64,000 nucleotides of DNA from positions 32,001 to 96,000 of the forward strand of contig JAVJQW010000070.1 in the NCBI GenBank assembly GCA_040218735.1, given 5' to 3'. Every line of letters begins with the position of its first letter. The first letter of the stretch is position 1. Source of the DNA: Deltaproteobacteria bacterium. Its GTDB lineage: Bacteria; Myxococcota; Kuafuiibacteriia; Kuafuiibacteriales; Kuafuiibacteriaceae. Positions 7,022-64,000 of this stretch are shown here, piece by piece. Made by a program: the position numbers and the translations under genes. The notes beneath the pieces were generated by a model. That model saw only the letters and a list, made by a program, of their open reading frames with translations. It did no database searches and was not told the origin of the DNA.

Positions 7022-7749
7022 CACCCGAACGTTTCGAAGGTAGGATATTTACACACGTGGCCGTCACCGGGTTGTCGAAGTACCTGTTCCGTCCGGTCGA
7101 AGACGTCGTCCGCGACCTCTCCGCGCTCCCCGTCGCCGAGCAGGAAGCGACGATCGCCCAGCTCCTGGAGGCCAGCGAGCACACCGCGGAGATCGGCGAA
7201 GTCGCGATGAGCGCCCTCGGGCTCGACGACGGCAAGCTCCTGGAGCTCGCGCTGGAGGAGCCGTGGCGGTCGGGGGTGATCGGGGAGCGCTCCCTGGTCG
7301 GCGTTCGGACCGCGCAGAACGCCGCCGCGACCCTCACGAAGGCGCAGGAGGCGCAGCTTCTCTCCCTCGGCGTCGGCAAACACGACTTCGGGCTGTTCCT
7401 CATGGGGCGCCCGGTCCTCTTCGAGATGCCGGCGGTGACCGATACCCAGGAGGCGCTCGGCGGGTTCGTGAAGCTCACGGACGACGCCATCGCGAGCGGC
7501 ATCATCCTGGTGAAGGACCAGGGTGGCGGCGCCACGTCGTTGTTTGCGTTCCGGAAGCGGACGTTCGAGGTCGCCCGCGCCTTCGACCGCCCCCACGTCG
7601 ACTTCCTCGGCTGTGAGATCAAGAATCATCGCCTAGGAAGGCTTCTGGCTCGCCAGGGGTTCGAACCGGCGACGGTCGACGTCCCCGAAGATCTCGGCGG
7701 GGGCACGATGGCCGTCATGCACAAGCGCTACGATACGAGGGACTCATGA
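7018..7749 (+). CDS. Hypothetical protein, possible polymorphic-toxin-like/GNAT-like C-terminal domain
   Basis: 243-aa ORF coupled on both sides. C-terminus EIKNHRLGRLLARQGF...VPEDLGGG resembles a GNAT motif-B pattern. Confidence 0.45.
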   Translation: MTPERFEGRIFTHVAVTGLSKYLFRPVEDVVRDLSALPVAEQEATIAQLLEASEHTAEIGEVAMSALGLDDGKLLELALEEPWRSGVIGERSLVGVRTAQNAAATLTKAQEAQLLSLGVGKHDFGLFLMGRPVLFEMPAVTDTQEALGGFVKLTDDAIASGIILVKDQGGGATSLFAFRKRTFEVARAFDRPHVDFLGCEIKNHRLGRLLARQGFEPATVDVPEDLGGGTMAVMHKRYDTRDS

Positions 7750-45528: not shown

Positions 45529-47520
45529 TCAGTTGCAGTCGGCGGAGACGTTGATCATCTCCGTCGCCTGGCTCTGACTCATCGCGCCGCAGCTGTTGAT
45601 GGCGTCCAGCCCCAAGAAGTACACGCCGTCGCGCTCCGGGATGAACGTCGTCGTCGACATCTGCTGCGAGAACTGCGGCTCCGGCGGCGGCGCGAACAGC
45701 CACGACCACGTGTAACCCACGATCGTCGTCGTCATCCCGTCGCCGCCCGGCATCGACATGTCCGCGTTGATCGTCACGGGCTCACCGACACACGGCCGCA
45801 TCGTCTCGACCTCGATGATCGGGATCGGGAAGAAACACGGATCGTCCATCGCCTCGAGGATCACGATCTGATCCGGGTTGCCCGGGTCGTTCGTGTAGAC
45901 GTGCAGGTTCACCGTGTCCGTCGTCGAGATGTCGTTGTTGTCGTAGGTGATCGGGATGTCGAAGCGCCCCGACATCGGCGGGAGCGTCTCGTTGATCGTG
46001 CACGGCACCTGACCGCCGCAGACCGGAAGATCGATCGTGAAGTCGTCCTTCGAGGAGTTGTCCTCCAGGATGTCGATGCGCTCGATGACGCAGTCGCCGA
46101 ACCCGGTGCTGAGAATCGTGAGGTTCTCGGTGCGCGGCGGGTACGGCGGCTCCTCGTTCGCCGGGAGCGCAAACACCAGTCGCGCCGGGACCTCGCATCG
46201 CGGCACGGCGCCGGCGCGGAAGTCGAGCTCGAGGCGCCCGTTGTTCCGGATGTCGTTGCTCGCGATGACGATCGTCTCGACGTCGATGCCGCCGTCCTGA
46301 GGCGTGTACGAGACGTTGATCGTGAAGCGGCCCTGCGGCTGGATCATGAACGGCGCCGCGCCGACGTCCGTGGTGATCGTGAGCTCGGGGTTGCCGCTCT
46401 CCACGCCGATTGAGCTCACGTCGAGGATCGCGTTACCGGAGTTCTGGCAGCTGAACGACGTGGTCGCGGTCGTCGCCTGCTCCACCGGCCCGAGGTCGCG
46501 CTGCGGCGGCGAGCACTGCAGGTTCGCGGCCGCGCCGTTACCGTTGATCAGCATCGACACCACGCGGTTGTCCGGCGCCGAGGTGAAGAACCGAAGGCCG
46601 TTGCCCTCGCTGGGGAGGCCGCCCCACGCGCCGGCGGCGCCGCCGTCGAAGCGCAGCTTGAACCGGCGCGTGCCGGAGGTGCCGCCCGCGTCGATCGGGA
46701 CCTCAAGGGGGTTGGCCGCCGAGATGTCCAGCGGGTTGCCGTCCAGGTCGCGGATGGAGAAGCCGACCTCCTCGCCCTCGATCGTCGGCGCGTTGGCCGG
46801 GTCCTCGTCGAGGTCTCGGACCTCGATCGTCACGCCGTCCACGGACAACGTTCCGACGGGTTTGTCGTTTCGCCACTCGTTCTCGATCTCGATGATCAGG
46901 TCACACGGGTCGCCGCCCGCGGTGACCGCGCCGAACAGGATGCCGTTGCAGACCTGCATGTTCGGCTCGTCGACGTTGCACTGCACCCCGCCCATCGTGA
47001 CCGGGCAGCGGATCGTGACGGTCGGCGCCTGCACCGGCTGCGCCGCGACCGTGATCTCTCGGTTCCCCTCAGTGGAGTTGTCCGTGATGCTGAGGACGCC
47101 GGAGTCCGGGTCGCCCGGGCAGTCCGGGAGCAGATCCGGGTTCACGTCGTTGCCCTGCCACGCGTCGGGGCACGGGCGATACGTGACGGTGATCGTCGCG
47201 GTCTGGCTCGGCGACAGGCCGGTCGTGAACGCGTCGTCGACGACGATCGTCCACTTTCCGGTGTCGTCCGCGTCGAATTGCTCGACGAGCTCGACGATGT
47301 TGTAGGCGGCGCTACCGTCGTTGCGCACCGTGATGCCCACGGTCTTCTCCGAGTCCACGGAGACGTCGCCGAGGTCGAGCACCGTCGCGGGGGTGTAGTT
47401 GGGGCTGGGGAGGAACACCGGGTCCTCACCGCAGTCGCAGTTGACGGTGGTCGCCGCCGCGAGGGTCGCGTACAGAAACGTCTGAGTGAGGCCAAGGGAG
47501 CGTCGTCGAGCAATGGTCAT
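45529..47520 (-). CDS. Secreted/lipoprotein with tandem Ig-like (ASH/choice-of-anchor D) and PKD-like domains
   Basis: AAGGA then ATG at 47520; signal ending TVNCDC; repeated L(D)LG.V / ITVRNDG / NSGNAILDV / V.YTP; terminal YTWSW PKD-like segment. Confidence 0.7.
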   Translation of the reverse strand: MTIARRRSLGLTQTFLYATLAAATTVNCDCGEDPVFLPSPNYTPATVLDLGDVSVDSEKTVGITVRNDGSAAYNIVELVEQFDADDTGKWTIVVDDAFTTGLSPSQTATITVTYRPCPDAWQGNDVNPDLLPDCPGDPDSGVLSITDNSTEGNREITVAAQPVQAPTVTIRCPVTMGGVQCNVDEPNMQVCNGILFGAVTAGGDPCDLIIEIENEWRNDKPVGTLSVDGVTIEVRDLDEDPANAPTIEGEEVGFSIRDLDGNPLDISAANPLEVPIDAGGTSGTRRFKLRFDGGAAGAWGGLPSEGNGLRFFTSAPDNRVVSMLINGNGAAANLQCSPPQRDLGPVEQATTATTSFSCQNSGNAILDVSSIGVESGNPELTITTDVGAAPFMIQPQGRFTINVSYTPQDGGIDVETIVIASNDIRNNGRLELDFRAGAVPRCEVPARLVFALPANEEPPYPPRTENLTILSTGFGDCVIERIDILEDNSSKDDFTIDLPVCGGQVPCTINETLPPMSGRFDIPITYDNNDISTTDTVNLHVYTNDPGNPDQIVILEAMDDPCFFPIPIIEVETMRPCVGEPVTINADMSMPGGDGMTTTIVGYTWSWLFAPPPEPQFSQQMSTTTFIPERDGVYFLGLDAINSCGAMSQSQATEMINVSADCN

Positions 47521-47672
47521 GGCGTGGTCCTTCACTGTCGGGCGCTACCAAGGCGCCGCCGCGTGGTCAATCCGAACGGTCGCAGCGCGGTCTGCGCCGA
47601 CGCGAATTTGGATGGTACGATGACCGCCAGGCGTCAAAATGTCACGCGGCTCGCCCCCGCGGCCCAGCATTC

Positions 47673-48587: not shown

Positions 48588-49822
48588 GCACCTCGGAAGA
48601 CGACGCCCCCACGCTGCGCTGGGCGGTGCTCGCGCTGCTCGGGCTGCTGATGTTCGGCAGCTACTACGGCTACGACGCGATCGCGCCGCTCGCCGAGATC
48701 CTCGGACGTGAGCTCGGGTTCACGGACACCCAAATCGGCGGGCTCAACGCGATCTACTCCGCGCCCAACGTGGTCATGGTGCTCGTCGGCGGCGTCCTCG
48801 TGGATCGCATTGGCCTGCGCCGCGTGATCCTCGGAACGTCGATCGTCCTGTGCGCCGGTGCGTTCCTCACCGCCGCGCGCCCCGACTACGCGATGATGGC
48901 CGCGGGGCGTCTGCTGTTCGGCCTCGGCGCGGAGACGATGATCATCGCGGCGACGACCGCCATCGGGCTGTGGTTCGCGAAGAAACACCTCGCGCTCGCG
49001 ATGGCGATCGCCGTGAGCCTCGCGCGCGCCGGTTCGTACGCCGCGGACGTCTCACCGGCGTGGGCACCCGAGCTCTACGCGGCGGGTTGGCGTCCGCCGC
49101 TCCTCGTCGCCGCCGGGTTCGCGACGCTCGGTCTGGTGGGGGCGGTCGGCTACCTGTTCGTCGCGCGACGCGCGGAGCTCGGCGCCAAGGAGCGCGCCGA
49201 GCGCTTCGAGTGGAGGACGCTCCTGAAGCTCGGTCCGCGTTACTACATCCTCGTCGCGACCTGCGTCCTGTTCTACGCGACCATCTTCCCGTTCCGCAGC
49301 ACGTTCGCCGTGAAGTACTATCAGCACGCGCACGGGCTCTCGCTCGAGGACGCGAGCACGACGAACGGCATCGTGTTTTTGACCGCCGTCGTCGCGACGC
49401 CAATCTTCGGGGCGCTGGTGGATCGGTTGGGGCGCCACCGCGCGTGGCTCGTCGGCGGTGCGCTCGTCCTGCTGCTCGCGTTCGTCCTGCTGCTCACCCG
49501 CGCCGACCCGCGGATCGCGACCGCCCTGCTCGGGATCAGCTTCGCGCTGGTCCCGGCCGTGTTGTGGCCCGCCGTCGCGCTGACGGTGGAGCCCCACCGC
49601 CTCGGCACCGCCTACGGCTTGATGGCAATGCTCCAGAACCTCGGCCTCACCGCGGCCAACGTCATCGCGGGCCGAATCAACGACGCGTCGGGCGCGGGCG
49701 CCGCCGACCCCGGCGCCTACCGTCCGATGCTGTTGTTCTTCACCGCGCTCGCGCTCGGGGCCGCAGTCACGGCGGGCGCCGGTTTGATTCGCGGACGTCG
49801 AGAGACGATCAGAGGTACTTAG
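48584..49822 (+). CDS. MFS transporter (MFSD1-like)
   Basis: About 12 TM segments; GGVLVDRIG and GALVDRLG motif A; GRLLFGLGAE. Confidence 0.9.
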   Translation: MSTSEDDAPTLRWAVLALLGLLMFGSYYGYDAIAPLAEILGRELGFTDTQIGGLNAIYSAPNVVMVLVGGVLVDRIGLRRVILGTSIVLCAGAFLTAARPDYAMMAAGRLLFGLGAETMIIAATTAIGLWFAKKHLALAMAIAVSLARAGSYAADVSPAWAPELYAAGWRPPLLVAAGFATLGLVGAVGYLFVARRAELGAKERAERFEWRTLLKLGPRYYILVATCVLFYATIFPFRSTFAVKYYQHAHGLSLEDASTTNGIVFLTAVVATPIFGALVDRLGRHRAWLVGGALVLLLAFVLLLTRADPRIATALLGISFALVPAVLWPAVALTVEPHRLGTAYGLMAMLQNLGLTAANVIAGRINDASGAGAADPGAYRPMLLFFTALALGAAVTAGAGLIRGRRETIRGT

Positions 49823-51072
49823 AAGTACTTGATCGTGTTCGTGACGAGGTCGCGAGCGACCTCCTCCGGGGCGACGCCCTTCTTCTGCGCCACGACCCGG
49901 ATCTTCTCGAACTCCGCGGGCGACAGGTTGAGCTCGAGGGTGTGCCGCGCGCCGTTCTCCTGACGGATCGACGAGTCCACGACGATGAGCGCGGCGGACT
50001 TGTCGCTGCCTTCCTTCGCCTTGCCCACGGCCTCGCCGACCATGACGTCGTGTTTGCCGGTCGCCGGCACCGGCGGCGGCGTCTTTCCGCGACGCGCCTT
50101 CGCAGCCTCCGCGGATCGTTCGCGCTCGCGTTCGATCTCGTCCGCGAAGATCTGCTTCATGAAGTTCGCGAGGTGCGTGTTCGTCGGCGTGAACGCAGCG
50201 ACGGTGTGCAGCCACTGCTGGATGTCGAACTGCATGTCGCGCGCGGTCTGGTAGCGCTCCTCGCGATCCTTCGCGAGCGCCTTCATGAGAATCGCCTCGA
50301 TGCCCTCCGGGATGTCCTCGCGGAAGTACGACGGCGGATAGATCCGGCCGTCGATGATCGACTTGAGGATCGCCATCTCGTTCTCGCCGGTGAAGAGCTT
50401 GTAGCCGGTGATCCACTCGTAGAGGACGACGCCGAGCGTGAAGATGTCGGACCGCTCGTCGAGCTTCTTCCCCATCCCCTGCTCCGGGGACATGTACGAG
50501 AGCTTGCCCTTGATCTCGCCGGCCTTGGTCTGGTCGGTCTGCGAGTTCGCCTTCGCGATCCCGAAGTCGAGGATCTTCACGTTCCCGTTCCAACCGACCA
50601 TCACGTTCTCGGGCGTGATGTCGCGGTGGACGATGTTGAGCGGCTCGCCGAAGTCGTCGGCCTTGGTGTGCGCGTACGCGAGGCCGTCCAGGACGCGCTC
50701 GCCGATCGCGAAGGCGTACTCGATCGGGAACGTGATCCCGAGCTTCTCGGCCTTCGGGATCACACGCGACATGTCCCGACCCGAGATGTACTCCATCGCG
50801 ATGTAGAAGCTGTCGTTGATCTTGCCGAGGTCGAAGATCTGGACGACATGCGGATGTTGCAAACCTGCGGCGAGTTTCGCCTCGAACAGGAACATCTTGA
50901 GAAAGGCGTCCTCGTTCGACAGGTGCGGACGAATGCGCTTGATCGCAAACGTCTTCTCGAAGCCCTCGAGCCCCGGGCGCACGGCGAGGAAGACCTCCGC
51001 CATACCGCCGACCGCGATCCGCTCGAGGAGCTTGTATTTCCCAAACCAGACGGGTGCGTTTCGGGAGACCAA
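49819..51072 (-). CDS. Cytoplasmic Ser/Thr kinase with C-terminal ribbon-helix-helix-like domain
   Basis: FGKYKL, GGMAEVF, HRDITPEN, DFGIAK, YMSPEQ. No TM. C-terminus TLELNLSPAEFEKIRVVAQKKGVAPEEVARDLV. Confidence 0.88.
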   Translation of the reverse strand: MVSRNAPVWFGKYKLLERIAVGGMAEVFLAVRPGLEGFEKTFAIKRIRPHLSNEDAFLKMFLFEAKLAAGLQHPHVVQIFDLGKINDSFYIAMEYISGRDMSRVIPKAEKLGITFPIEYAFAIGERVLDGLAYAHTKADDFGEPLNIVHRDITPENVMVGWNGNVKILDFGIAKANSQTDQTKAGEIKGKLSYMSPEQGMGKKLDERSDIFTLGVVLYEWITGYKLFTGENEMAILKSIIDGRIYPPSYFREDIPEGIEAILMKALAKDREERYQTARDMQFDIQQWLHTVAAFTPTNTHLANFMKQIFADEIERERERSAEAAKARRGKTPPPVPATGKHDVMVGEAVGKAKEGSDKSAALIVVDSSIRQENGARHTLELNLSPAEFEKIRVVAQKKGVAPEEVARDLVTNTIKYF

Positions 51073-51494
51073 GTCCGGCGGGACGCTAGACGGGTGACCG
51101 CTCGGCTACAAGCCGACCGTTGCCCGACCGGCGGCCGGGTCTCGGGGCTTTCCACGCGGGGTCCGGAATTCGGCTGAAGGATTCTCCCCGCTCCTCACCC
51201 GATCGATCGGACTTCGGTTCAAGGATCGAATACCCTCGTTTTCACGCCAATTTCACCCGATTGCCCCGTGATCTTCCCCACTTGACGGAAAAGCCTGACA
51301 GGCGGACCCTACCGGCGGCCTGGGATGAGGACGCGTCGCGTGAGCGGTATCAACATGGGCGGTCTCGATTGCGAGACGCCGCTCCCGTGCGCACTGAATT
51401 CCCTGAGGCCATCGGCTGCTGAGCTCCTGTTCGCCGCGTCTTCGAGGCGCGGTCCGATGTTTGGTTCCACGACAGAGCCGAGGGAAGCAAAACC

Positions 51495-54400
51495 ATGTAC
51501 TCCACGCACGCAAGCACAACTGAAACAAAGGGGGTCGGCCTCGCCCGGCTCCTGACGACATCCGCCGCATTTGCGGCCGCGCTCACCTGGGCTCCCCAGG
51601 CGAACGCAGAGATCGCGGTGATCTCCACCGCACCGGTGGTCTATACACCGCTGGCCAACCCGACCGTCCTGACCACGTCGGACGACGACTCGGTCTTCCA
51701 GGTCACCTCGCCGTTCCCCATCCGGTTCTACGAGCAGCAGACGACGACGTTGGGCGTGAGCACCAACGGCACGATGACGATGGACGGCTCCGCGATTTCC
51801 TACACGAACATCGCGATGGGCACGACGAGCACGCCGAACAACGTGCTCGCCCCGTGGTGGGACGACCTCCGTCTCAACGCGGCCAACAACGGCCGCATCG
51901 CGCACGCGACGCTCGGCACGGCACCCAACCGGACGTTCGTCGTCGAGTGGCACCTCGTGAGCGAGTGGGGCAACGACCCGTCGACGTTCTCGATGCAGGT
52001 CCACTTCCACGAGGGTGACGCGATGAACTTCGACATCCACTACGGCCCGACCGGGAACAGCCCCGCGTTCTCGGCGACCGCGGGGATGGAGAACAGCCAG
52101 GGGATGATCCCGTTCATCTTCCCGGCCTCGCAGTGCACCACCCTCTGCAGCGCGACCGACTTCGCGGCCCTGTCGGGCAACATGGTCACCGTGCAGAGCG
52201 GACCGGCGCCGTCGCTGCTCGTCTCGCTCGGCAACGCACCCGCGAACCTCCCGACCGGCGGCACCGCGATGGGCGACCTCACGCTCACGAACCTGGGTAC
52301 GAACGACGCCGTGGGCACGCTGACGTCGGTCTACCTGTCGTCGGACACGACGCTGGACGCCATGGACACCCTCGTCGGCACCGCGACGACCACCATCCCG
52401 TATGGCAACACGACCACGCCGGTCACGCTGACGATCCCGGCCAACGCCACGCTCGGGAACAACTACCTCATCGCCGTGGTCGACTCGAACGACCAGTTCT
52501 CGGAGGACTTCGAGAACGACAACACCGCGACCACCGTCGTCTCCGTCGGTTCGGACGTCGCGGCCGCCGCGCTGCGCGTGACGAACGGCGCCGCGGGCAT
52601 CAACGGCGGCGCGCCGATCGACTTCGAGGTCGACATCGCGCAGGCCGGCTTCCCGTACGCGGGCGGCGTCGACATCACGTTCTACGCGTCGGTCGACACG
52701 CTGTTCGACGCGATGGACACGCCGATCGACACGGCGTCGTTCAACCTCACGGGTGACCCCACCGAGACGCTGAACCACACGGCGACCTTCCCGGTGCTGC
52801 CCCCGGGCCAGTACTACGCGATCGCGCACATCGACCCGATGGACGTGCTCCCGGAGACGAACAACAACAACAACTTCGGAACGACGACGTTCTCGTTCAA
52901 CAGCGGCCCGGACTTCACGGTCGACACCGTGACGATCCCGCGCGGCCTGTTGCCCGGTGACACCGGTACGATCGCGACCAAGGTCGACAACGTCGCCGTC
53001 CCGTTCACGGGGCCCGTGCCGTACACGCTCTACCTCTCCGAGGACGGCGTCATCGACATGATGGACACGGTGATCGGCAACTACGTCATCAACTTCGCCG
53101 GTCAATCGAACATCGTCGACAACCAGTCGTTCATGGTGCCGGCGTCGCCGCTCGGCTATTACAACGTCATCGCCGAGGTCGACCCGGCGGCCGCGATCGT
53201 CGAGGCCTCCGAGATGAACAACGTGCAGGTGTCGTCGAACCCGGTCGCGAACGCGGTCGACTTCGCCGCGGCCCTCGCGACCTCGAGCCCGAGCACGGTC
53301 GAGGTCGGTGATCCGGTCAACGTCACCGCGGAGATCTCCAGCGACGGCGTCTCCTTCGTCGGCAACGTGCCCTTCCAGGTGCACCTGTCGCCCGACCCGA
53401 TCTTCGACCCCGGTGATCCGGCCGTCTACCGCGGCTTCGTGTTCTTCCCCGGCGGCAACGGCTCCGGTCAGATCGACGTCACGTTCCCGCTGCAAGCCCT
53501 CCCCGGTCAGCCCGCGCTCATCGCCGGTGGCTTCACGGTGTTCGTGGTCGTCGACCCGGACAACACCACGATGGAAGCGGACGAGATGAACAACGCCGGC
53601 CCGGCCAACTCGATCACCATCGAGGGCGCCGACCTGGTCGTGAACTCGATCAGCGGCGCGGCCACCGCGTTCATCGGCCTCCCCTACGAGGTCACGATGA
53701 ACGTCTCGAACGTCGGCGTCGCCGACGCGCGTGCCTTCCGTTACGCGTTCTACATGTCCGACAACGACATCATCCGCGTCACCGACCGCCGGGTGTTCGT
53801 GTCGAGCACGGCGACCATCGCCTCGGGGGACAGCGAGCAGTTCACGGACTCGTTCACCATCCCGACCTTCACGTCCACGCGCACGCAGTACCTCGGCGTC
53901 ATCGTCGACATCTTCTCGGTCGTCCCGGAGACCTCCGAGACGAACAACGCGCGCCGCATCGTGAACCCGATTACCGTCGTGTTCCCGATTCCGGATCTGC
54001 GCGCGGAGATCGTCGGCACAGCGACCGCGGCCGCCGCGGGTGAGGATCTGTCGATCACGCGCATCCTCGAGAACGTCGGCGTCGCACCTTCGGGTGCGTT
54101 CGAGTACAGCTATTACCTGTCCACGAACGCGCAGATCGCGACGGACGACATCCTCCTCGGGACGTTCAACAGCGCATCCCTCGCCGAGGGGAACGACGAC
54201 TACGGCGTCGACACCGTGACCATCCCGCCGTCGGTGATGGAGTCGAACTACTACGTCGGCATGATCGTCGACCCGAACGATCAGGTCGACGAGGTCGACG
54301 ACACGATCGAAGGCAACACGGCGCTCGGCCCGCAGATCCCGGTCTACCGGTCCACGCTGCAGTTCCAGACGGACGCGCTCCCGGCCGGCACCATCGGCGT

Positions 54401-57400
54401 GCCGTACGAGACGGCGGTGTACGCCACCGGCGGTCCGCTGCCGATCACCTGGGCCATCCAGACCGGCAACCTCCCGCCGGGCCTCGAGCTCGACGCGGCG
54501 TCGGGGATCATCTCCGGCACGCCGACCGACGAGGGCAACTACGAGTTCGCGGTCCGGGCGCTCTCCGGCACGGCCTACGCGGAGCGGACCTTCCAGGTGC
54601 GCATCACGTCGCCGACGGTGCAGCTCGCCATCGCGACGCCGACGCTGCCCTCGGGCATCGCCGGTCGCCCCTATCGCGCGGACCTGATCGCGGTCGGCGG
54701 CACGGTGCCGTACACCTGGTCGGTCATCTCGCAGCTCCCGACGGGCCTCGAGCTCGCGCCGAACGGCACGCTCAGCGGCGAGCCGCGGACGCCGGGCAAC
54801 TTCGGCCTCACGGTCAGCGTGCGCGACGCGGTCGGCAACACCGCCACCCGCATGGTCGCGCTGAACATCACCAACGCGAACCAGACGATCCAGATCTCGC
54901 AGCTCCCGCTGCCGACCGCCGAGGTCGGTGAGGAGTACTGCGATCCGGAGCCCGTCCTGTTCGGGGCGGAGAACGGCGTGGGGCCGTACTCGTGGTCGAT
55001 CGTCGGCGACGCACCTCCCGGGATGCGCGTCGAATCGAACGGCGAGCTTTGTGGCGTGCCGACGCAGGTCGGTGAATTTGGTTTCGTGGTTCGCGCGCAG
55101 GATTCGACGGGTCTGTTCGACACGTCCCTGTTCGTGCTCGAGGTGACGGACGGCGACGACCTCGCCATCTCCACCTTCAACCTCGATCCAGGAGAGGTGG
55201 GTAAGATGTACACGCAAGACTTGACCGCCATCCGCGGGACGCAGCCCTACGCTTGGTCGGTGGTGACCGAGTGGGGCCCGATCGCGCCCGGCCTCGCGCT
55301 CAGCGAGGATGGCTTCCTCAGCGGCACGCCGACGTCGGACGGCACGTTTGCTTTCGTGGTCCGCGTCGTCGACGCCGCGGGTCGCCAGGACATCCAGACG
55401 CTCACGATCGTCATCGACCCCGCGCCGGTTCCGCCGGAGGACGACTCGGGTTGCTCGTGCGCGGCCACCGAGACGGAAGACACGTCGCCGTGGACGAACG
55501 CGATGATGCTGCTCGGCCTGGGCGGTCTCGTGGCGCTCCGTCGGAAGAAGAAGTCGATCGCGGCGCTGTTCGCGGCGGCGGTGACGATGGCGGCTCCGAG
55601 CTTCGCCGAGGCCCAGTGCCCCGCGCCGGAGTTCGCAGTGACCTCCGAGCCGCTGACCAACTACACGATGCTGCCGAGCCCGACGACGATCACCACGAAC
55701 TCCGACGACGGGGTCTTCGCGGTGACGTTGCCGTTCCCGTTCAGCTACTTCGGGACGAACCACACGTCGGTGCGCATCAGCGCCAACGGCGCCGTGCTGT
55801 TCCCGCCGCAGACGAGCATGACGTTCGTGAACGCCGCCCTCGGCGACGACTCGTACGACACCTCGATCTTCGCCTTCTGGGACGACCTCGACCTGAACTC
55901 CGGCACGGGTAACCTGATCGGCTACCAGGTGCAGGGGACGGCGCCGAACCGGACGATCACGTTCGAGTGGCGGAACATCAACCACCACTCGTACTCGGCG
56001 TGGACGGTGAACTTCCAGGTGCGCCTCTTCGAGGGGCCGCTCGGGAAGATCGAAGTCGACTACTCGACGCAGACCGGTAGCGGCTCGCCGACGGCGACGA
56101 TGGGGATCGAAAACGACAACGCGACGATCATCATCCCCTTCACCAACCCCGACTGCAGCCCGTCCTGCGGCAACGCGGACTGGCCGACGAACACGCGGCT
56201 GACCATTCAGCGTGGGCCCGAGGTCTACGCGGTCGGCGTCGATGCGCCCGGCGTGGCGTTCCTCGGCGCGCAGGCGCAGGTCCCGGTCACGGTGTGCACG
56301 CCGTACACCCAGCCGATCGGGTTGTTCACGGTCGACGTCATCGCGTCGATGACCCAGAACATGATGAACCCGGTGCTGATCGGTCAGGGCCAGACGTCCC
56401 TCGGCGCGAACGGTCAGGCGACGTTCAACGTGACCACGACCATCCCCACCATGTTCGGCGAGAACCCGATCTACATGGGGATGATCGCGGACTCGGGCAA
56501 CGTGATCGCGGAGATCGACGAGACGAACAACACGGCGGTCGCTCCGGCGCCGACGCGGTTGATCGTCGGCCTGCCGGACCTCGCGGTGCAGCGGGTTCGC
56601 ATCTCGAACCGCAACATCAACGCGGGCGACACGTTCGACGTCTACACCACGGTGCAGAACGTCGGCGGTGAGCCGGCCGCGAACGCCGACGTCGCGATCC
56701 TGCTGTCGACCAACCCGGTCATCAGCCGGCAGGACGTGCTGCTCGACCAGTACACGGTGTCGCTGGAGGCGGGTGAGTCCGTGACCACGACGACGAGCGT
56801 GACGATCGACGCGATGACGAACTCCGGCACGTACTACATCGGTGCGTACGCGGACTACAACTCGTCCGTCGAGGAGCTCGCGGAGTCGAACAACGGCCGC
56901 TCCGACATCGGCACGCTCACCGTCACGGGCGGCGCGCTCGCCGTCGCGACGACGCGGTTGCCCGGCGGGTACGTCGGCATCTCCTACAGCGCGTCGTTCG
57001 TCGCGGCGGGCGGGGACGATTCGGATCGCACCTGGGAGATCACGCAGGGCTCGCTCCCGGACGGCCTCGACATCGTCCCGAGCACCGGGGAGATCTATGG
57101 TCGCCCGACCACGCCCGAGACGCAGACGTTCACCGTGCAGGTGACGTCCGGCGGCGAGACCGCGACGCGGCAGCTGATGATGACGGTGGCGGATCCCAGC
57201 GAGCCGCTCACGATCGTGACACGCTCCCTCGCGGCGGGTGTCGTCGGACAGGAGTACAGCTTCCCGATCGTCGCGACCGGCGGCGGGACGGAGACGAGCT
57301 CGCTGACGTGGAGCAGCTCCGGCCTCCCGGACGGCTTCGAGGTCACGCCGATGGGCGTCCTCATCGGCACGCCGATGACGGCCGGCAGCAGCACCGTGAC

Positions 57401-58157
57401 GATCACGGTGAGCGACGGCACGGACACGACGTCGCGCGACATGACGCTGAGCATTCGCGACAACGCGAACCTGCTCATCGTTCCGCGGGTCCTCTCGACC
57501 GCGCGCTTCGGCGAGGCGTACTCGGAGCAGCTCGAGACGACGGGCGGCAACGCGCCGATCACGTTCCTCATGGGCGAGATCGGGCAGATTCCGCCGGGCC
57601 TCACGCTCGCGCCGGACGGCTCGATCACCGGTGAGCCGACGCTGGTCGGTCGCTATCGCTTCGAAGTCGTGGCGCGCGACTCGGGCATCGGCCCGGCCGC
57701 GGCGACGGACACGAACACGTTCGTCATCGACGTCGTGAACACCGACGGCTTCTCGATCATCACGAGCGAGCTGCCGGAGGGCATCGTCGGCCAGGGTTAC
57801 GAGGGAACCATCGAGGCCAGCGGCGGCCTGCCGCCGTACACGTGGACGATCCGCGAGGGTCGCCTCCCGGACGGCCTGCTCGCCGACACGAACAGCGAGG
57901 GCAAGTACCAAATCGCCGGTCAGCCGATGGAGTCGGGCCTGACGAGCCTCCTGGTCGAGGTTCGGGACAGCCAGGCGCGCACCGCGGTCCGTGCGTTGGC
58001 GCTCTCGGTCCTGGAGACGGCGCCCGTGGTCGTGGACCCGAAGATGGGCACCGACGATGGGTGCGGATGCACGGCGTCCGAGTCGCGCACCGGCTACGGC
58101 TGGGCGGTCCTCGGCCTGCTGGGCGTCGCGCTCCTCGCTCGGCGTCGCCGGTCCTGA
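51495..58157 (+). CDS. Giant surface protein (NIDO-like, CARDB, putative-Ig repeats) with internal and terminal MYXO-CTERM; probable two-module polyprotein
   Basis: Signal PQANA/E; LAPWWDDL NIDO-like domain; CARDB motifs (E.NE.NN); LP.G..G..Y...A.GG..PY.W Ig repeats; GCSC+TM+RRKKK at 55449-55553; GCGC+TM+RRRR at the end. Confidence 0.9.
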   Translation: MYSTHASTTETKGVGLARLLTTSAAFAAALTWAPQANAEIAVISTAPVVYTPLANPTVLTTSDDDSVFQVTSPFPIRFYEQQTTTLGVSTNGTMTMDGSAISYTNIAMGTTSTPNNVLAPWWDDLRLNAANNGRIAHATLGTAPNRTFVVEWHLVSEWGNDPSTFSMQVHFHEGDAMNFDIHYGPTGNSPAFSATAGMENSQGMIPFIFPASQCTTLCSATDFAALSGNMVTVQSGPAPSLLVSLGNAPANLPTGGTAMGDLTLTNLGTNDAVGTLTSVYLSSDTTLDAMDTLVGTATTTIPYGNTTTPVTLTIPANATLGNNYLIAVVDSNDQFSEDFENDNTATTVVSVGSDVAAAALRVTNGAAGINGGAPIDFEVDIAQAGFPYAGGVDITFYASVDTLFDAMDTPIDTASFNLTGDPTETLNHTATFPVLPPGQYYAIAHIDPMDVLPETNNNNNFGTTTFSFNSGPDFTVDTVTIPRGLLPGDTGTIATKVDNVAVPFTGPVPYTLYLSEDGVIDMMDTVIGNYVINFAGQSNIVDNQSFMVPASPLGYYNVIAEVDPAAAIVEASEMNNVQVSSNPVANAVDFAAALATSSPSTVEVGDPVNVTAEISSDGVSFVGNVPFQVHLSPDPIFDPGDPAVYRGFVFFPGGNGSGQIDVTFPLQALPGQPALIAGGFTVFVVVDPDNTTMEADEMNNAGPANSITIEGADLVVNSISGAATAFIGLPYEVTMNVSNVGVADARAFRYAFYMSDNDIIRVTDRRVFVSSTATIASGDSEQFTDSFTIPTFTSTRTQYLGVIVDIFSVVPETSETNNARRIVNPITVVFPIPDLRAEIVGTATAAAAGEDLSITRILENVGVAPSGAFEYSYYLSTNAQIATDDILLGTFNSASLAEGNDDYGVDTVTIPPSVMESNYYVGMIVDPNDQVDEVDDTIEGNTALGPQIPVYRSTLQFQTDALPAGTIGVPYETAVYATGGPLPITWAIQTGNLPPGLELDAASGIISGTPTDEGNYEFAVRALSGTAYAERTFQVRITSPTVQLAIATPTLPSGIAGRPYRADLIAVGGTVPYTWSVISQLPTGLELAPNGTLSGEPRTPGNFGLTVSVRDAVGNTATRMVALNITNANQTIQISQLPLPTAEVGEEYCDPEPVLFGAENGVGPYSWSIVGDAPPGMRVESNGELCGVPTQVGEFGFVVRAQDSTGLFDTSLFVLEVTDGDDLAISTFNLDPGEVGKMYTQDLTAIRGTQPYAWSVVTEWGPIAPGLALSEDGFLSGTPTSDGTFAFVVRVVDAAGRQDIQTLTIVIDPAPVPPEDDSGCSCAATETEDTSPWTNAMMLLGLGGLVALRRKKKSIAALFAAAVTMAAPSFAEAQCPAPEFAVTSEPLTNYTMLPSPTTITTNSDDGVFAVTLPFPFSYFGTNHTSVRISANGAVLFPPQTSMTFVNAALGDDSYDTSIFAFWDDLDLNSGTGNLIGYQVQGTAPNRTITFEWRNINHHSYSAWTVNFQVRLFEGPLGKIEVDYSTQTGSGSPTATMGIENDNATIIIPFTNPDCSPSCGNADWPTNTRLTIQRGPEVYAVGVDAPGVAFLGAQAQVPVTVCTPYTQPIGLFTVDVIASMTQNMMNPVLIGQGQTSLGANGQATFNVTTTIPTMFGENPIYMGMIADSGNVIAEIDETNNTAVAPAPTRLIVGLPDLAVQRVRISNRNINAGDTFDVYTTVQNVGGEPAANADVAILLSTNPVISRQDVLLDQYTVSLEAGESVTTTTSVTIDAMTNSGTYYIGAYADYNSSVEELAESNNGRSDIGTLTVTGGALAVATTRLPGGYVGISYSASFVAAGGDDSDRTWEITQGSLPDGLDIVPSTGEIYGRPTTPETQTFTVQVTSGGETATRQLMMTVADPSEPLTIVTRSLAAGVVGQEYSFPIVATGGGTETSSLTWSSSGLPDGFEVTPMGVLIGTPMTAGSSTVTITVSDGTDTTSRDMTLSIRDNANLLIVPRVLSTARFGEAYSEQLETTGGNAPITFLMGEIGQIPPGLTLAPDGSITGEPTLVGRYRFEVVARDSGIGPAAATDTNTFVIDVVNTDGFSIITSELPEGIVGQGYEGTIEASGGLPPYTWTIREGRLPDGLLADTNSEGKYQIAGQPMESGLTSLLVEVRDSQARTAVRALALSVLETAPVVVDPKMGTDDGCGCTASESRTGYGWAVLGLLGVALLARRRRS

Positions 58158-60932: not shown

Positions 60933-63900
60933 TCACCGCGTCGAGAAGACGTCGCTCGCTTCGAGCTCGTGACGAACGAGCTTTTTCAAACGCACGTTCT
61001 GTGAGGCCTGCACCAGGTCCTCGGCGCGCTCCAGCGAGATCTTCGCGCGGTTTTCGTCGCCCTGCGCGCGGTAGACCCGGCCCGACTGGACGAGGCCCTC
61101 GATCTGGAGCGTCTCGTTCTCCAGCGCTTCCGCGATCTCCAGGCCCGCCTCGATGTGTTCGATCGCTTCGGTGAAGCTGTCGTAGTTCTTCTCGATGGCG
61201 ACGGCGCCCAAGTAGATCTGCGCCCAGCCCTCGTAGAGCGAGAAGCCGATCTCGCGAGAGATCGCGAGGCAGCGCATGAGCTCCGCCGCGGCGCGCTCCG
61301 GTCGATCCGAGCGGGCGTGGTGAATCCCGAGCTCACCGTGCCAGGTGGCCTGACCCTGACGGCTCCCGGTCTCCTTCGCAATCGACAGGGCCTGCTGCAG
61401 CTTCTCCGTCGCGCCCTCGTCGTCGCCGAGGTTCGACATGAGGCTCCCGAGGGCACCCGACCAGCGCTCGAGATCTCGGCGGACCCCCCGAGCCTCCGCA
61501 AGCTCGATCGCCTCGGAGAAACACGCGAGCGCCTCGGACTCGTTGCCGCGCGCGGCGTGCACCTCGCCGATGTGGCCGAGCAGATCCGACAACGCGCGGG
61601 TGTCGCCGCGTCGCCGCGCGGTGGACAGACCGCCCTCGAGCTTCTCGAGCGCGCCCACGAAGTCCCCCTGGAAGAGCAAGACGACCCCGACGCGCCCGTC
61701 GAGCTCGTCCGCGAGCTCGTCGAGGCCGGCGTCCTGGGCGATCTGGTGCGCGGACTCCAGCACCGCCCTCGCCTGCCCGTACTCCGCCCGCGACATCCGC
61801 GTGGCGCCCTCCAGCGCGAGGAAGCGCGCGCCGAGGGAACGCGTCGGCGCGGGGCGCGGGACGGAGAGGAGCGTTGCGAGGGTCTCGTCGAGGCGCCCCA
61901 AGGCAAACTGGCTCGCGGCGCGGCGCAGGACGAGCTCGGCGCTCATGACCTCGGGCGCGCGGGCGTTGAGCGCCGCCTGCGGGTCGGCGCGTTCGAGCGC
62001 TTCCTTCGGACGGCCGAAGTCCAAGAGCAGATCGATCTGGAGCAGGAGCAGCCGGAGGCGTCGGGTCCCGCTCGCCGGCGTGCGCGGCGCGTCGTCGATC
62101 ACCGCGGTGGCGTCCTGGATGCGTCGCATCGCGGCGTCGATGTCCCCGCGCGTCGACGCCGCACGCGCCATCATCTCGAGGTACCGCACCGCGCGTAGCG
62201 GGCTCCCGCCGGCTCGGAAGTGCCGCGCAAGGACGTGCGCGAGCTCCGCCCGGCGCGTCGAGAAGCGGCGCTCCAACCGGTGCGCGATGCGCAGGTGCAG
62301 GTGCGCGCGCGGCTCGGCCGGCAACGCGCGGGTGACGGCCTCCCTGAACCCCTCGTGATAGAACCGGTAGCGCACACCGTCGTGGGAGACGTCCTCCATC
62401 AGGAGGTTCGCCCGCACCAGCTCGTCCATCGCGTCGAGGAACGCGTCCTCCTCGAGCTCGGCCACCGCGGACACGAGGTCCGCCGGCAACAGGCGCCCCA
62501 GAAGCGCGAGGCGTTCGAGGAGCTCCCGCGACCGCGGCTGTAGGCGCTCGAGCTTCGCCAACGCGGCGTCGTCCCCGCGGGTCGGTCGCGGCCGCCGCGC
62601 GCGGGTCGGCGGTCGTTCGGACACGGCGACCGGCACCGCGTCACGCGGCGTGACGTCGTCGACCGCCGGTGTGCCGTGCGCGGGTGTGACGTCCTCGACC
62701 TCCTCGGACTCGAGCGCTTCGTCCTTGTAGAACCACGTGCCTCGACGACGCTCGAGGACGCGCTCGCTGACCCAGGACTCCATGACCTCCTGCACCATCA
62801 ACGGGCGGCCGTGAGTCACGCGCACGAGCTCGTCCACGAACTTGCGCAGCGGGCGGTGCACGCCGGTCATCGTGCGCACCATGTCGAGGACGCCGGTCGC
62901 GGGGATCGGGCGCATCGTGAGGCGGTGCAGCCCGCTCCGTTCGTCGAGGCGACGTACGAGCTGCTCCGACTGGTCGGGCCCCTCCGCCAGCGAGCGGCGC
63001 GTCAGGATGATCGCGACCGGGCACACCGTCTCGTCCGACTTCCCGCGCGGCCGAGGCGCGAGCAGCGTCCGTGCGGCGTCCCACAGCAGCTCGAGCGTCG
63101 ATGAGTCGGCCCAGTGCAGATCTTCGATCGCGAGGATCGTCGGCCGCGTGAGCGCGAGCCGGCCCATCACCCCGACGATCGCCTTGTGCAGGCGGACCTT
63201 TCGCTCGGAGGCGTCGAGGTGCTCCGTCGTCGCGGGCCCGCCGAGGCGCGCGAGGCGCGGCGACACCGCATGCACCAACGCCGCGTCGCGCCCCACGATC
63301 TTGCGCACCACGTCGTTGGGCGCCTTCGACGCGATCGACTCGATCTCGTCGAGCACCGTCTCGATCGGCGCGTAGGCCTGCGACGGCTCGGGCTGGCACG
63401 GCCCGATGACCATGTTCATCTTGCGCCGAACGCGGCCCTTCAGCTCCTGCAGCAGGCGGCTCTTGCCGATCCCGCTGGGGCCCTCGATCAACATCAGCTG
63501 GCCGCGGCCCGCGGCGGTGGACTCTGCGAGCTCGATGAGCGCGTCCAGCTCGTCACCGCGCGCGACGAAGCGCGGCGCGAACAGCTGCCCCGGGAGCGAC
63601 GACTCGACCTGCGAGCTCGTTTGTTCGTCGTCGGTCAGATACGAGAACGCCTCCTCGGCGGTCTGCAGGCGATCGAGCGGGTCCTTTTCGAGGAGCTTCT
63701 GCGTCAGCGCCGCGAGCGTCGGGTCGGCCTTGTCGTTGACCTCGAGGACGTGGGTCGGCTTCGTGTTGACGTGGTGGTGCAGCGCCGCCGCCGGAGGCTC
63801 GACGGGGAACGGGTAGTCGCCCGCGAGCACCTCGTACATCAGCACGCCGACGGCGTAGAGATCCGAACGACCGTCGATCTCCCCGCTCGTGACCTGCTCG

Positions 63901-64000
63901 GGCGCCATGTACGCGAAGGTCCCGAGGAGCCCGCTGCTGCTCGTCGGCGCGCGAAGCAGCCGCGCGACGCCGAAGTCCATCAGCTTCACGCGCCCGTCGC
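60933..64000 (-). CDS. Ser/Thr kinase-AAA ATPase-TPR protein (5' part outside window)
   Basis: DFGVAR, YMAPEQ, DLYAVG; FVAR..EL, GPSGIGKS (Walker A), IEDLHWAD (Walker B), YRFYH; C-terminal TPRs. Confidence 0.9.
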   Translation of the reverse strand, partial: DGRVKLMDFGVARLLRAPTSSSGLLGTFAYMAPEQVTSGEIDGRSDLYAVGVLMYEVLAGDYPFPVEPPAAALHHHVNTKPTHVLEVNDKADPTLAALTQKLLEKDPLDRLQTAEEAFSYLTDDEQTSSQVESSLPGQLFAPRFVARGDELDALIELAESTAAGRGQLMLIEGPSGIGKSRLLQELKGRVRRKMNMVIGPCQPEPSQAYAPIETVLDEIESIASKAPNDVVRKIVGRDAALVHAVSPRLARLGGPATTEHLDASERKVRLHKAIVGVMGRLALTRPTILAIEDLHWADSSTLELLWDAARTLLAPRPRGKSDETVCPVAIILTRRSLAEGPDQSEQLVRRLDERSGLHRLTMRPIPATGVLDMVRTMTGVHRPLRKFVDELVRVTHGRPLMVQEVMESWVSERVLERRRGTWFYKDEALESEEVEDVTPAHGTPAVDDVTPRDAVPVAVSERPPTRARRPRPTRGDDAALAKLERLQPRSRELLERLALLGRLLPADLVSAVAELEEDAFLDAMDELVRANLLMEDVSHDGVRYRFYHEGFREAVTRALPAEPRAHLHLRIAHRLERRFSTRRAELAHVLARHFRAGGSPLRAVRYLEMMARAASTRGDIDAAMRRIQDATAVIDDAPRTPASGTRRLRLLLLQIDLLLDFGRPKEALERADPQAALNARAPEVMSAELVLRRAASQFALGRLDETLATLLSVPRPAPTRSLGARFLALEGATRMSRAEYGQARAVLESAHQIAQDAGLDELADELDGRVGVVLLFQGDFVGALEKLEGGLSTARRRGDTRALSDLLGHIGEVHAARGNESEALACFSEAIELAEARGVRRDLERWSGALGSLMSNLGDDEGATEKLQQALSIAKETGSRQGQATWHGELGIHHARSDRPERAAAELMRCLAISREIGFSLYEGWAQIYLGAVAIEKNYDSFTEAIEHIEAGLEIAEALENETLQIEGLVQSGRVYRAQGDENRAKISLERAEDLVQASQNVRLKKLVRHELEASDVFSTR

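Follow-up and report, generated by a model that had tools for sequence, protein, structure and literature searches.

A putative surface polyprotein of Myxococcota in which an internal MYXO-CTERM tag runs directly into a predicted signal peptide

Flavivirus and alphavirus envelope polyproteins alternate stop-transfer helices with internal signals and are cut by host signal peptidase. In bacteria, the cytochrome b/c1 precursor FbcH of Bradyrhizobium japonicum is split at an internal signal peptide, and in Haloferax volcanii a substrate of ArtA is reportedly, by the title of a study by Abdul Halim and colleagues from 2017, processed with a tripartite structure that is not C-terminal. Here we describe P0001, an open reading frame (ORF) of a Deltaproteobacteria bacterium (Myxococcota) in which a sorting tag of the MYXO-CTERM type stands in the middle of the protein and is followed immediately by what looks like a second signal peptide. 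The gene lies in a stretch of 64,000 nucleotides from contig JAVJQW010000070.1 of assembly GCA_040218735.1 (G000:C61:32001-96000), hereafter the window.

In the MYXO-CTERM/MrtX sorting of TraA (TIGR03901; PMC11980579; 10.1101/2023.06.07.544157), the tag is made of a Cys motif, a transmembrane (TM) helix and an Arg-rich tail, the same tripartite arrangement as in P0001. MrtX cleaves MYXO-CTERM in a Cys-dependent manner, according to the excerpts of Guo, Haft & Wall (mBio 2025, PMC11980579) on which we draw here. As in the TraA system, a myxosortase-family protease and the secretin of a type II secretion system (T2SS) are encoded in the genome. The TraA tag is C-terminal, whereas one of the two tags of P0001 has 867 residues beyond it, the second being terminal.

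A preliminary description of this locus noted that MYXO-CTERM signals are normally C-terminal; an internal case has been in print since 2025. In MXAN_5598 of Myxococcus xanthus, as in P0001, the motif sits in mid-ORF, with an adhesin before an outer-membrane (OM) barrel/OmpA part. The excerpted text suggests that MXAN_5598 arose by fusion of two genes, proposes continued processing and surface anchoring of its N-terminal part, calls internal tags atypical and cites Navarre and Schneewind 1994 and Abdul Halim et al. 2017 for tags in mid-protein (PMC11980579). The partner of that tag is an OM beta-barrel/OmpA part. In P0001 the tag is followed by another surface protein of the same tagged kind, and up to four such units are joined in relatives. 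Those same excerpts contain no mention of a signal peptide after the tag, of signal peptidase, of a hairpin or of conservation of the junction. The words 'internal', 'fusion' and 'polyprotein' have 0 occurrences in the Haft preprint (10.1101/2023.06.07.544157), and our literature search returned no sorting tag plus signal peptide described as a bacterial polyprotein; Table S1 of PMC11980579 may list more internal tags. New here is the homotypic form with several modules and a conserved signal peptidase site, of a kind noted once in print.

Three further systems can be compared. The Haloferax volcanii substrate has, again by title, a tripartite structure resembling a sorting tag in mid-protein that is still processed; it is archaeal, and it is a Tat substrate handled by ArtA, which belongs to a different family of sortases. 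The viral envelope polyproteins resemble the processing that we propose below in that one chain is cut beyond the membrane into separate anchored proteins, but they belong to the eukaryotic endoplasmic reticulum and involve neither a sorting-tag protease nor a lipid anchor. FbcH belongs to a respiratory complex and has no sorting tag.

P0001 is a single ORF that holds two complete units with a stop-transfer helix and an internal signal between them (Table 1). From 55440 to 55616 one frame reads DDSGCSCAATETEDTSPWTNAMMLLGLGGLVAL-RRKKK-SIAALFAAAVTMAAPSFAEA/QC, the slash marking the predicted cut. It opens with the signature motif GCSC (aa 1319-1322) and continues into the TM segment WTNAMMLLGLGGLVAL, which stands directly before RRKKK and completes the TM helix and Arg/Lys-rich tail typical of MYXO-CTERM. 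With RRKKK as basic n-region, the h-region SIAALFAAAVTMAAP and then SFAEA/Q follow, as in a signal for signal peptidase I. The layout first described, a Cys motif, TM helix and basic run leading in the same frame into an h-region and an AxA site (aa 1320-1353, then 1354-1374), is thus confirmed. Module 2 ends, as also claimed, on its own GCGC-TM-RRRR tag, DDGCGCTASESRTGYGWAVLGLLGVALLARRRRS followed by the stop codon (aa 2188-2219; TIGR03901 42.8 bits, cut-off 20). The signal peptide at the N-terminus (aa 1-38) is a prediction read off the translation.

We consider it fairly probable that P0001 encodes a hairpin-inserted precursor which signal peptidase I and a myxosortase cut into two lipid-anchored surface proteins. 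The ribosome would deliver one precursor of 2220 aa, and its N-terminal signal peptide would start Sec export of module 1 until the TM segment of the internal tag stops transfer. RRKKK would stay in the cytoplasm, where it would end the tag and at the same time provide the n-region for the signal that follows. Because the second hydrophobic segment would re-initiate export, that of module 2, after this stop-transfer helix, the junction would form a two-helix hairpin in the inner membrane. Signal peptidase I would then cut after AEA and free module 2, which its own C-terminal tag would hold. The Cys of each tag would be lipidated and the myxosortase-family protease would remove each TM helix, and a peptide of some 50 aa, the former hairpin, would be left over.

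Table 1. Coordinates of the fused gene, its parts, the adjoining paralogue and the public contigs compared with it (positions in the window).
Feature	Position	Strand	Evidence or remark
Fused ORF P0001	51495..58157	+	2220 codons plus stop, no internal stop (translation)
N-terminal signal peptide, aa 1-38, predicted cut ANA/E	51495..51608	+	translation inspected
Module 1, long type, ~1280 aa: N-domain, CARDB repeats, He_PIG Ig repeats	51609..55451	+	Pfam
Internal MYXO-CTERM-type tag	55452..55553	+	Cys motif, TM, basic run; HMM matches
CSC, C1320 and C1322	55452-55460	+	
TM helix of internal tag, W1333-L1348	55491-55538	+	
GTG (Val1346), candidate internal start	55530..55532	+	GTT (silent) in X2 and X4
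RRKKK, R1349-K1353	55539-55553	+	
Predicted internal signal peptide, h/c-region, S1354-A1373	55554..55613	+	ends AEA (55605-55613)
Predicted signal peptidase I cut before Q1374	55614	+	
Module 2, short type, ~815 aa: N-domain, CARDB, He_PIG repeats	55614..58055	+	translation, Pfam
Terminal MYXO-CTERM tag of module 2: GCGC, TM, RRRRS	58056..58154	+	TIGR03901 42.8 bits
P0002, stand-alone module 2 paralogue, 870 aa	58284..60896	+	126-bp spacer after fused ORF
X2 record 1	54800-55956		14 substitutions
X4 record 9	54800-55636		7 substitutions
X5 record 17	all 1501 bases		56 substitutions, four single-base indels

The positions on which both cuts would depend are the best conserved of the junction. 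We aligned 19 junctions (that of the window and 18 from eight other genomes) out of the 20 located; G012, in which the loop is long and a clear Cys motif is lacking, was omitted. Mean column identity is 31%, and the only invariant columns are C13, C15, A66 and Q67, which are the two Cys of CxC, the Ala at -1 and the Gln at +1. The Gly before the first Cys (G12) and the Ala at -3 (A64) are found in at least 90% of the junctions. Nothing else is invariant at so low a mean identity, a sign that selection acts on both cleavage motifs. Likewise, 41 of 42 unique internal junctions from loci and public proteins have small-x-A before Gln or Glu, at a distance of 14-31 aa (median 18) from the basic run, and the one remaining junction carries a lipobox. 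In a control of 2000 windows placed at random in these proteins, 349 contain the motif, a lower frequency than at the junctions.

The residue after the internal cut aligns with the mature N-terminus of stand-alone paralogues, in the form A-x-A/Q-x-VPGTPY. For example, the adjoining paralogue P0002 reads MTRRALRTLALSVSVLGGLTLARPAFA/QLVPGTPY from its true start codon. Gln follows the predicted cut at 19 of 19 internal junctions and in many N-terminal signal peptides, among them AFA/Q in P0002 (58365). This recurrence suggests a habit of forming N-terminal pyroglutamate, similar to the 'Q-rule' reported for Bacteroidetes in the excerpts of PMC5837995. The loop between the two hydrophobic segments usually comprises 4-8 basic residues; it reaches about 25 residues in G012 (L020, G012:C5) and in P0097. 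These two may be fusions trimmed less than the others, or intermediates, or the loop may be an intergenic spacer that is now read through.

The junction is kept in relatives. A 300-aa query spanning it was searched in 41 related genomes, the source genome G000 included. Stop-free matches to the whole query were found in six genomes of the same family (G006, G011, G004, G010, G007 and G008), in frames of about 1800-2440 aa; G009 also has a stop-free junction, and the frames of G004 and G006-G011 extend over about 1800-4050 aa. G012 has a variant form of the junction, and those of G010:C158, G007:C2 and G008:C72 are degenerate and were found by alignment. Overall, orthologues from nine genera of the family have a junction free of stops, and the translated orthologous loci show the same layout in each. 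Some of these ORFs comprise three to four modules: one 2440-aa frame of G006:C9 has two internal junctions and a terminal tag, an ORF of 3905 aa in G006:C1 has three internal junctions, and one of 4051 aa in G011:C1 has three and a terminal tag.

Public proteins show the same picture. Residues 1230-1600 matched 539 proteins at E<=1e-10 in a collection of 5.8 billion, many of them over the Ig repeats alone, and we inspected 28 proteins chosen for high junction coverage among the 120 matches listed. A regular expression (regex) detected an internal tag followed by a hydrophobic segment in 23; P0073, which matches the G010:C158 ORF in its N- and C-terminal residues, has a junction that the regex missed and brings the carriers to 24, and P0041 and P0111 gave no resolved junction by regex. 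The remaining two, P0113 and P0121, are stand-alone module-1 proteins. The junction is thus carried by at least 24 clusters of public proteins, with lengths of 1980-3060 aa. A public homologue, P0004 (2214 aa), is 86% identical over aa 1230-1600 and has a matching N-terminus. Fused proteins are called as single proteins by the gene callers of NCBI, JGI, ENA and Logan. The possibility raised at the outset, that all homologues might be split genes, is answered by these nine genera and at least 24 clusters.

We also asked whether the junction is real DNA. The source genome, G000 (11.6 Mb), is a draft of 70 contigs with 4.65% contamination, and a few related loci have frameshifts, both of which would fit an error of assembly or sequencing, or a recent, pseudogene-like loss of a stop codon that has no function. 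Part of the window is held by 21 public runs, four of which (X2, X4, X5 and X20) we compared as Logan contigs. Contigs of three independent DNA studies agree in bridging 55440-55620 with 0 gaps (Table 1), and none has a stop or frameshift there. The substitutions at the junction are 55526 and 55595, both at third codon positions, 55509 (Leu to Met) and 55532 (G>T). Beyond the junction, the four single-base indels of the X5 contig, at 55833-55844, cancel each other and leave a short strain difference of frame in the N-domain of module 2. Since the independent contigs are joined by conservation in relatives, where the junction persists at 25-40% identity across nine genera with invariant processing motifs, and since several public sources call the same fused proteins, we reject an artefact or lost stop as barely conceivable. 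P0001 is rather a genuine, evolutionarily maintained fusion of two tandem surface-protein genes.

A fused frame could still be translated in two pieces, with module 2 arising mainly from an internal start in or near the TM helix and read-through as a by-product. The GTG at 55530, three codons before RRKKK, would give MALRRKKKS..., a textbook signal peptide, and many junction TM helices contain a GTG, TTG or ATG by chance. We checked the 19 junctions for in-frame ATG, GTG or TTG with Shine-Dalgarno-like words 4-18 nt upstream. Across them there is no conserved start position, and no start codon is consistently placed before the basic run, as an N-terminal location of the signal would entail. 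Several have no candidate start at all between TM helix and h-region, no Shine-Dalgarno-like motif precedes GTG 55530, and an ATG with GGAGG upstream is found in one of the 19 (G004:C1). In addition, two of the independent studies have contigs in which 55532 G>T makes this codon GTT. As there is no stop codon, ribosomes on module 1 must run on into module 2, and the frame is maintained across the junction in nine genera despite indels. Given the lack of a conserved start and the change to GTT among strains, an internal start is quite improbable as the main route; a minor contribution may exist. An origin of module 2 solely from this codon, which the preliminary description named as a way in which its polyprotein reading could fail, therefore finds no support, and every computational test of that reading, by contigs, homologues and start codon, came out in its favour.

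Several points weigh against two separately anchored products. The internal tag of P0001 is a weak to marginal match to the curated hidden Markov models (HMMs): it scores 16.3 bits with TIGR03382 (cut-off 15.85; aa 1319-1350), and as an isolated piece of 74 aa it has no TIGR03901 match at E<=0.01, a level that 16 of the 19 aligned junction pieces reach. With an HMM made from C-terminal tags of its own genome, 83 in number, it scores 24.8 bits (independent E-value 3.5e-5). The internal cleavage site is placed by the -3/-1 rule and the alignment, and hairpin topology, both cleavages, lipid anchoring, equal stoichiometry and surface location are predictions from the sequence. The evidence for a continuous transcript is a 331-nt contig of a metatranscriptome library (X20 record 7, 55387-55717) which bridges the junction; since such libraries can hold DNA, it is a weak hint. 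Stand-alone module-1 genes are found in G016:C60 and as P0113 (1228 aa) and P0121 (1230 aa), the stand-alone P0002 adjoins P0001, and because fused and split forms coexist the fusion is dispensable for function. Finally, copies in G006:C9, G004:C1 and G000:C46 are broken elsewhere, so some may be decaying.

Some of these points would fit a chain that is incompletely cut, the internal signal being an uncleaved signal-anchor or the myxosortase ignoring the internal tag. This would leave a hairpin protein in the inner membrane whose two arms reach into the periplasm, or module 1 alone would be released. The low scores of the internal tag with curated models and the sequence-derived nature of the cleavages speak for such an outcome, as does the term atypical applied to internal tags in the excerpts of PMC11980579. 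On the other hand, the invariance of both Cys and of the Ala and Gln on either side of the predicted cut, and of nothing else, is hard to explain if they are unused; small-x-A/Q or E is retained at signal-peptide distance in all but one of the 42 junctions; and an anchor would keep module 2 in the inner membrane despite its full surface-sorting tag. We regard incomplete cutting as unlikely, though still to be reckoned with, and retain cleavage into two anchored proteins as the preferred reading.

The enzymes for such cleavage are encoded in G000. A myxosortase-family protease (G000:C18:18155-18868(-)) matches NF040914 Mrt_core at 119.5 bits (cut-off 100); its best equivalog, MrtP, scores 195 bits where the cut-off is 250. 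There are two signal peptidases I (144.7 and 134.9 bits, cut-off 47), and the T2SS secretin is GspD (488 bits, cut-off 351).

The same genome contains further junctions. The HMM of its own tails finds 99 terminal tags and 10 internal matches. The Cys motif is present in eight of the ten, and all eight run directly into a segment resembling a signal peptide; two matches without Cys resemble ordinary membrane proteins. Five of the eight are of the signal peptidase I type (C61, C46, C39 twice, and C42) and three of the lipobox type (C56:22051-25246(+), C59:274506-279261(-) and C67:288939-291537(-)). A ninth internal tag, found by regex only, has a lipoprotein-type signal (C41:141398-143726(+)). 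In C56, C59, C67 and C41 the lipobox Cys comes after RRR and a hydrophobic run, and these junctions would need Lgt and LspA instead of signal peptidase I.

A profile made from the 19 junctions was next run against 201 genomes of the phylum. Matches were found in 117, mostly to terminal tags, and at least 58 matches, counted by eye among those listed, span both halves of the model without a stop (start <=15 and end >=62 of the model; one G195 row left out). At all 19 places fetched, from 17 genomes and nine other families (f9, f11, f14, f17, f18, f19, f20, f22 and f31), tag, basic run, hydrophobic segment and small-x-A stand in one frame. The downstream partner varies: among others, it begins with the same N-domain (for example in G141, G161, G114 and G127) or like an outer-membrane barrel protein. 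The junction layout is therefore phylum-wide and not peculiar to this gene. The chances seem to us evenly poised that Myxococcota reuse the tag-to-signal hairpin as a general 'cut here' cassette, in which a Cys motif, TM helix, shared basic loop and h-region followed by AxA/Q or a lipobox would let two inner-membrane proteases release two to four surface or envelope proteins per precursor.

With regard to domains, both halves of P0001 contain CARDB (PF07705, 192.4 bits) and He_PIG Ig repeats (PF05345, 163.7 bits), each above its Pfam gathering cut-off. The modules had been called NIDO-like/CARDB/Ig; the CARDB and Ig parts are solid, and NIDO (PF06119) stays below its cut-off of 25, as the N-domain of module 1 reaches 17.2 bits and that of module 2 has no match, so that we do not assign the N-domains to this family. 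Precomputed annotation lists PF06119 on two homologue clusters among public proteins. The AlphaFold2 model of the module 2 N-domain (55614-56348) is confident (pLDDT 89.2) and mostly beta, and a fold search of the PDB with it gave 0 matches at E<=0.001. Two Cys and a W-D-D motif are among the conserved columns of the domain.

The adjoining P0002 has its own ATG, signal peptide and MYXO-CTERM. We built a tree of 11 short modules (750-900 aa) out of 22 from syntenic loci, leaving out long modules and fragments. Module 2 of P0001 is sister to P0002 (53% identity, SH-aLRT 97), and in G006 internal module 3 is sister to its own stand-alone module 4 (SH-aLRT 100). From these sister pairs, tandem duplication keeps yielding fused and separate copies, and the module 1/2 junction is shared across genera. 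The G016 locus was considered as a split pair and set aside; its module-1 gene ends at a stop and an unrelated gene follows, which makes it a stand-alone form.

Frame changes were observed in three loci. Module 1 of G006:C9 (L013, ~7392-7424) is split over two frames, and module 2 of G004:C1 changes frame (L015, 9932-10656, minus-strand numbering). In G000:C46:58400-58900 (L059) a tag-to-signal junction meets a stop some 40 codons later and the N-domain continues in another frame; this copy is either frameshifted and decaying or affected by a local assembly error.

The fused gene and P0002 are flanked by a Ser/Thr protein kinase gene (49819-51072 (-)) and a kinase/AAA_16/TPR gene (60933-63989 (-)) that continues past the end of the window. 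An ORF at 48850-51177 (+) is an Arg-rich shadow frame of the opposite-strand kinase gene and was discarded as lying outside the system. Further upstream, 45529-47535 (-) encodes 668 aa with ASH/HYDIN-like Ig, DUF1573 and a weak CARDB match, and its product may be another surface protein.

By the usual view one bacterial gene gives one exported protein, and C-terminal sorting tags are defined and searched at C-termini. If P0001 and its relatives are cut as predicted, many giant myxobacterial 'Ig domain-containing proteins' would each be several surface proteins, counts of sorting-tag substrates would be too low (8 of about 107 tags are internal here), and signal peptidase I and myxosortase would act jointly on one substrate. 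The published TraA/MrtX assays, as excerpted from PMC11980579, offer a way of testing the polyprotein idea. The hairpin junction would be a natural design for stoichiometric co-display on a Gram-negative surface. If the tag-to-signal hairpin is indeed a general cassette, it would fix co-expression and stoichiometry of the proteins that it joins and would represent a bacterial counterpart of the viral envelope polyproteins, so far undescribed as such.

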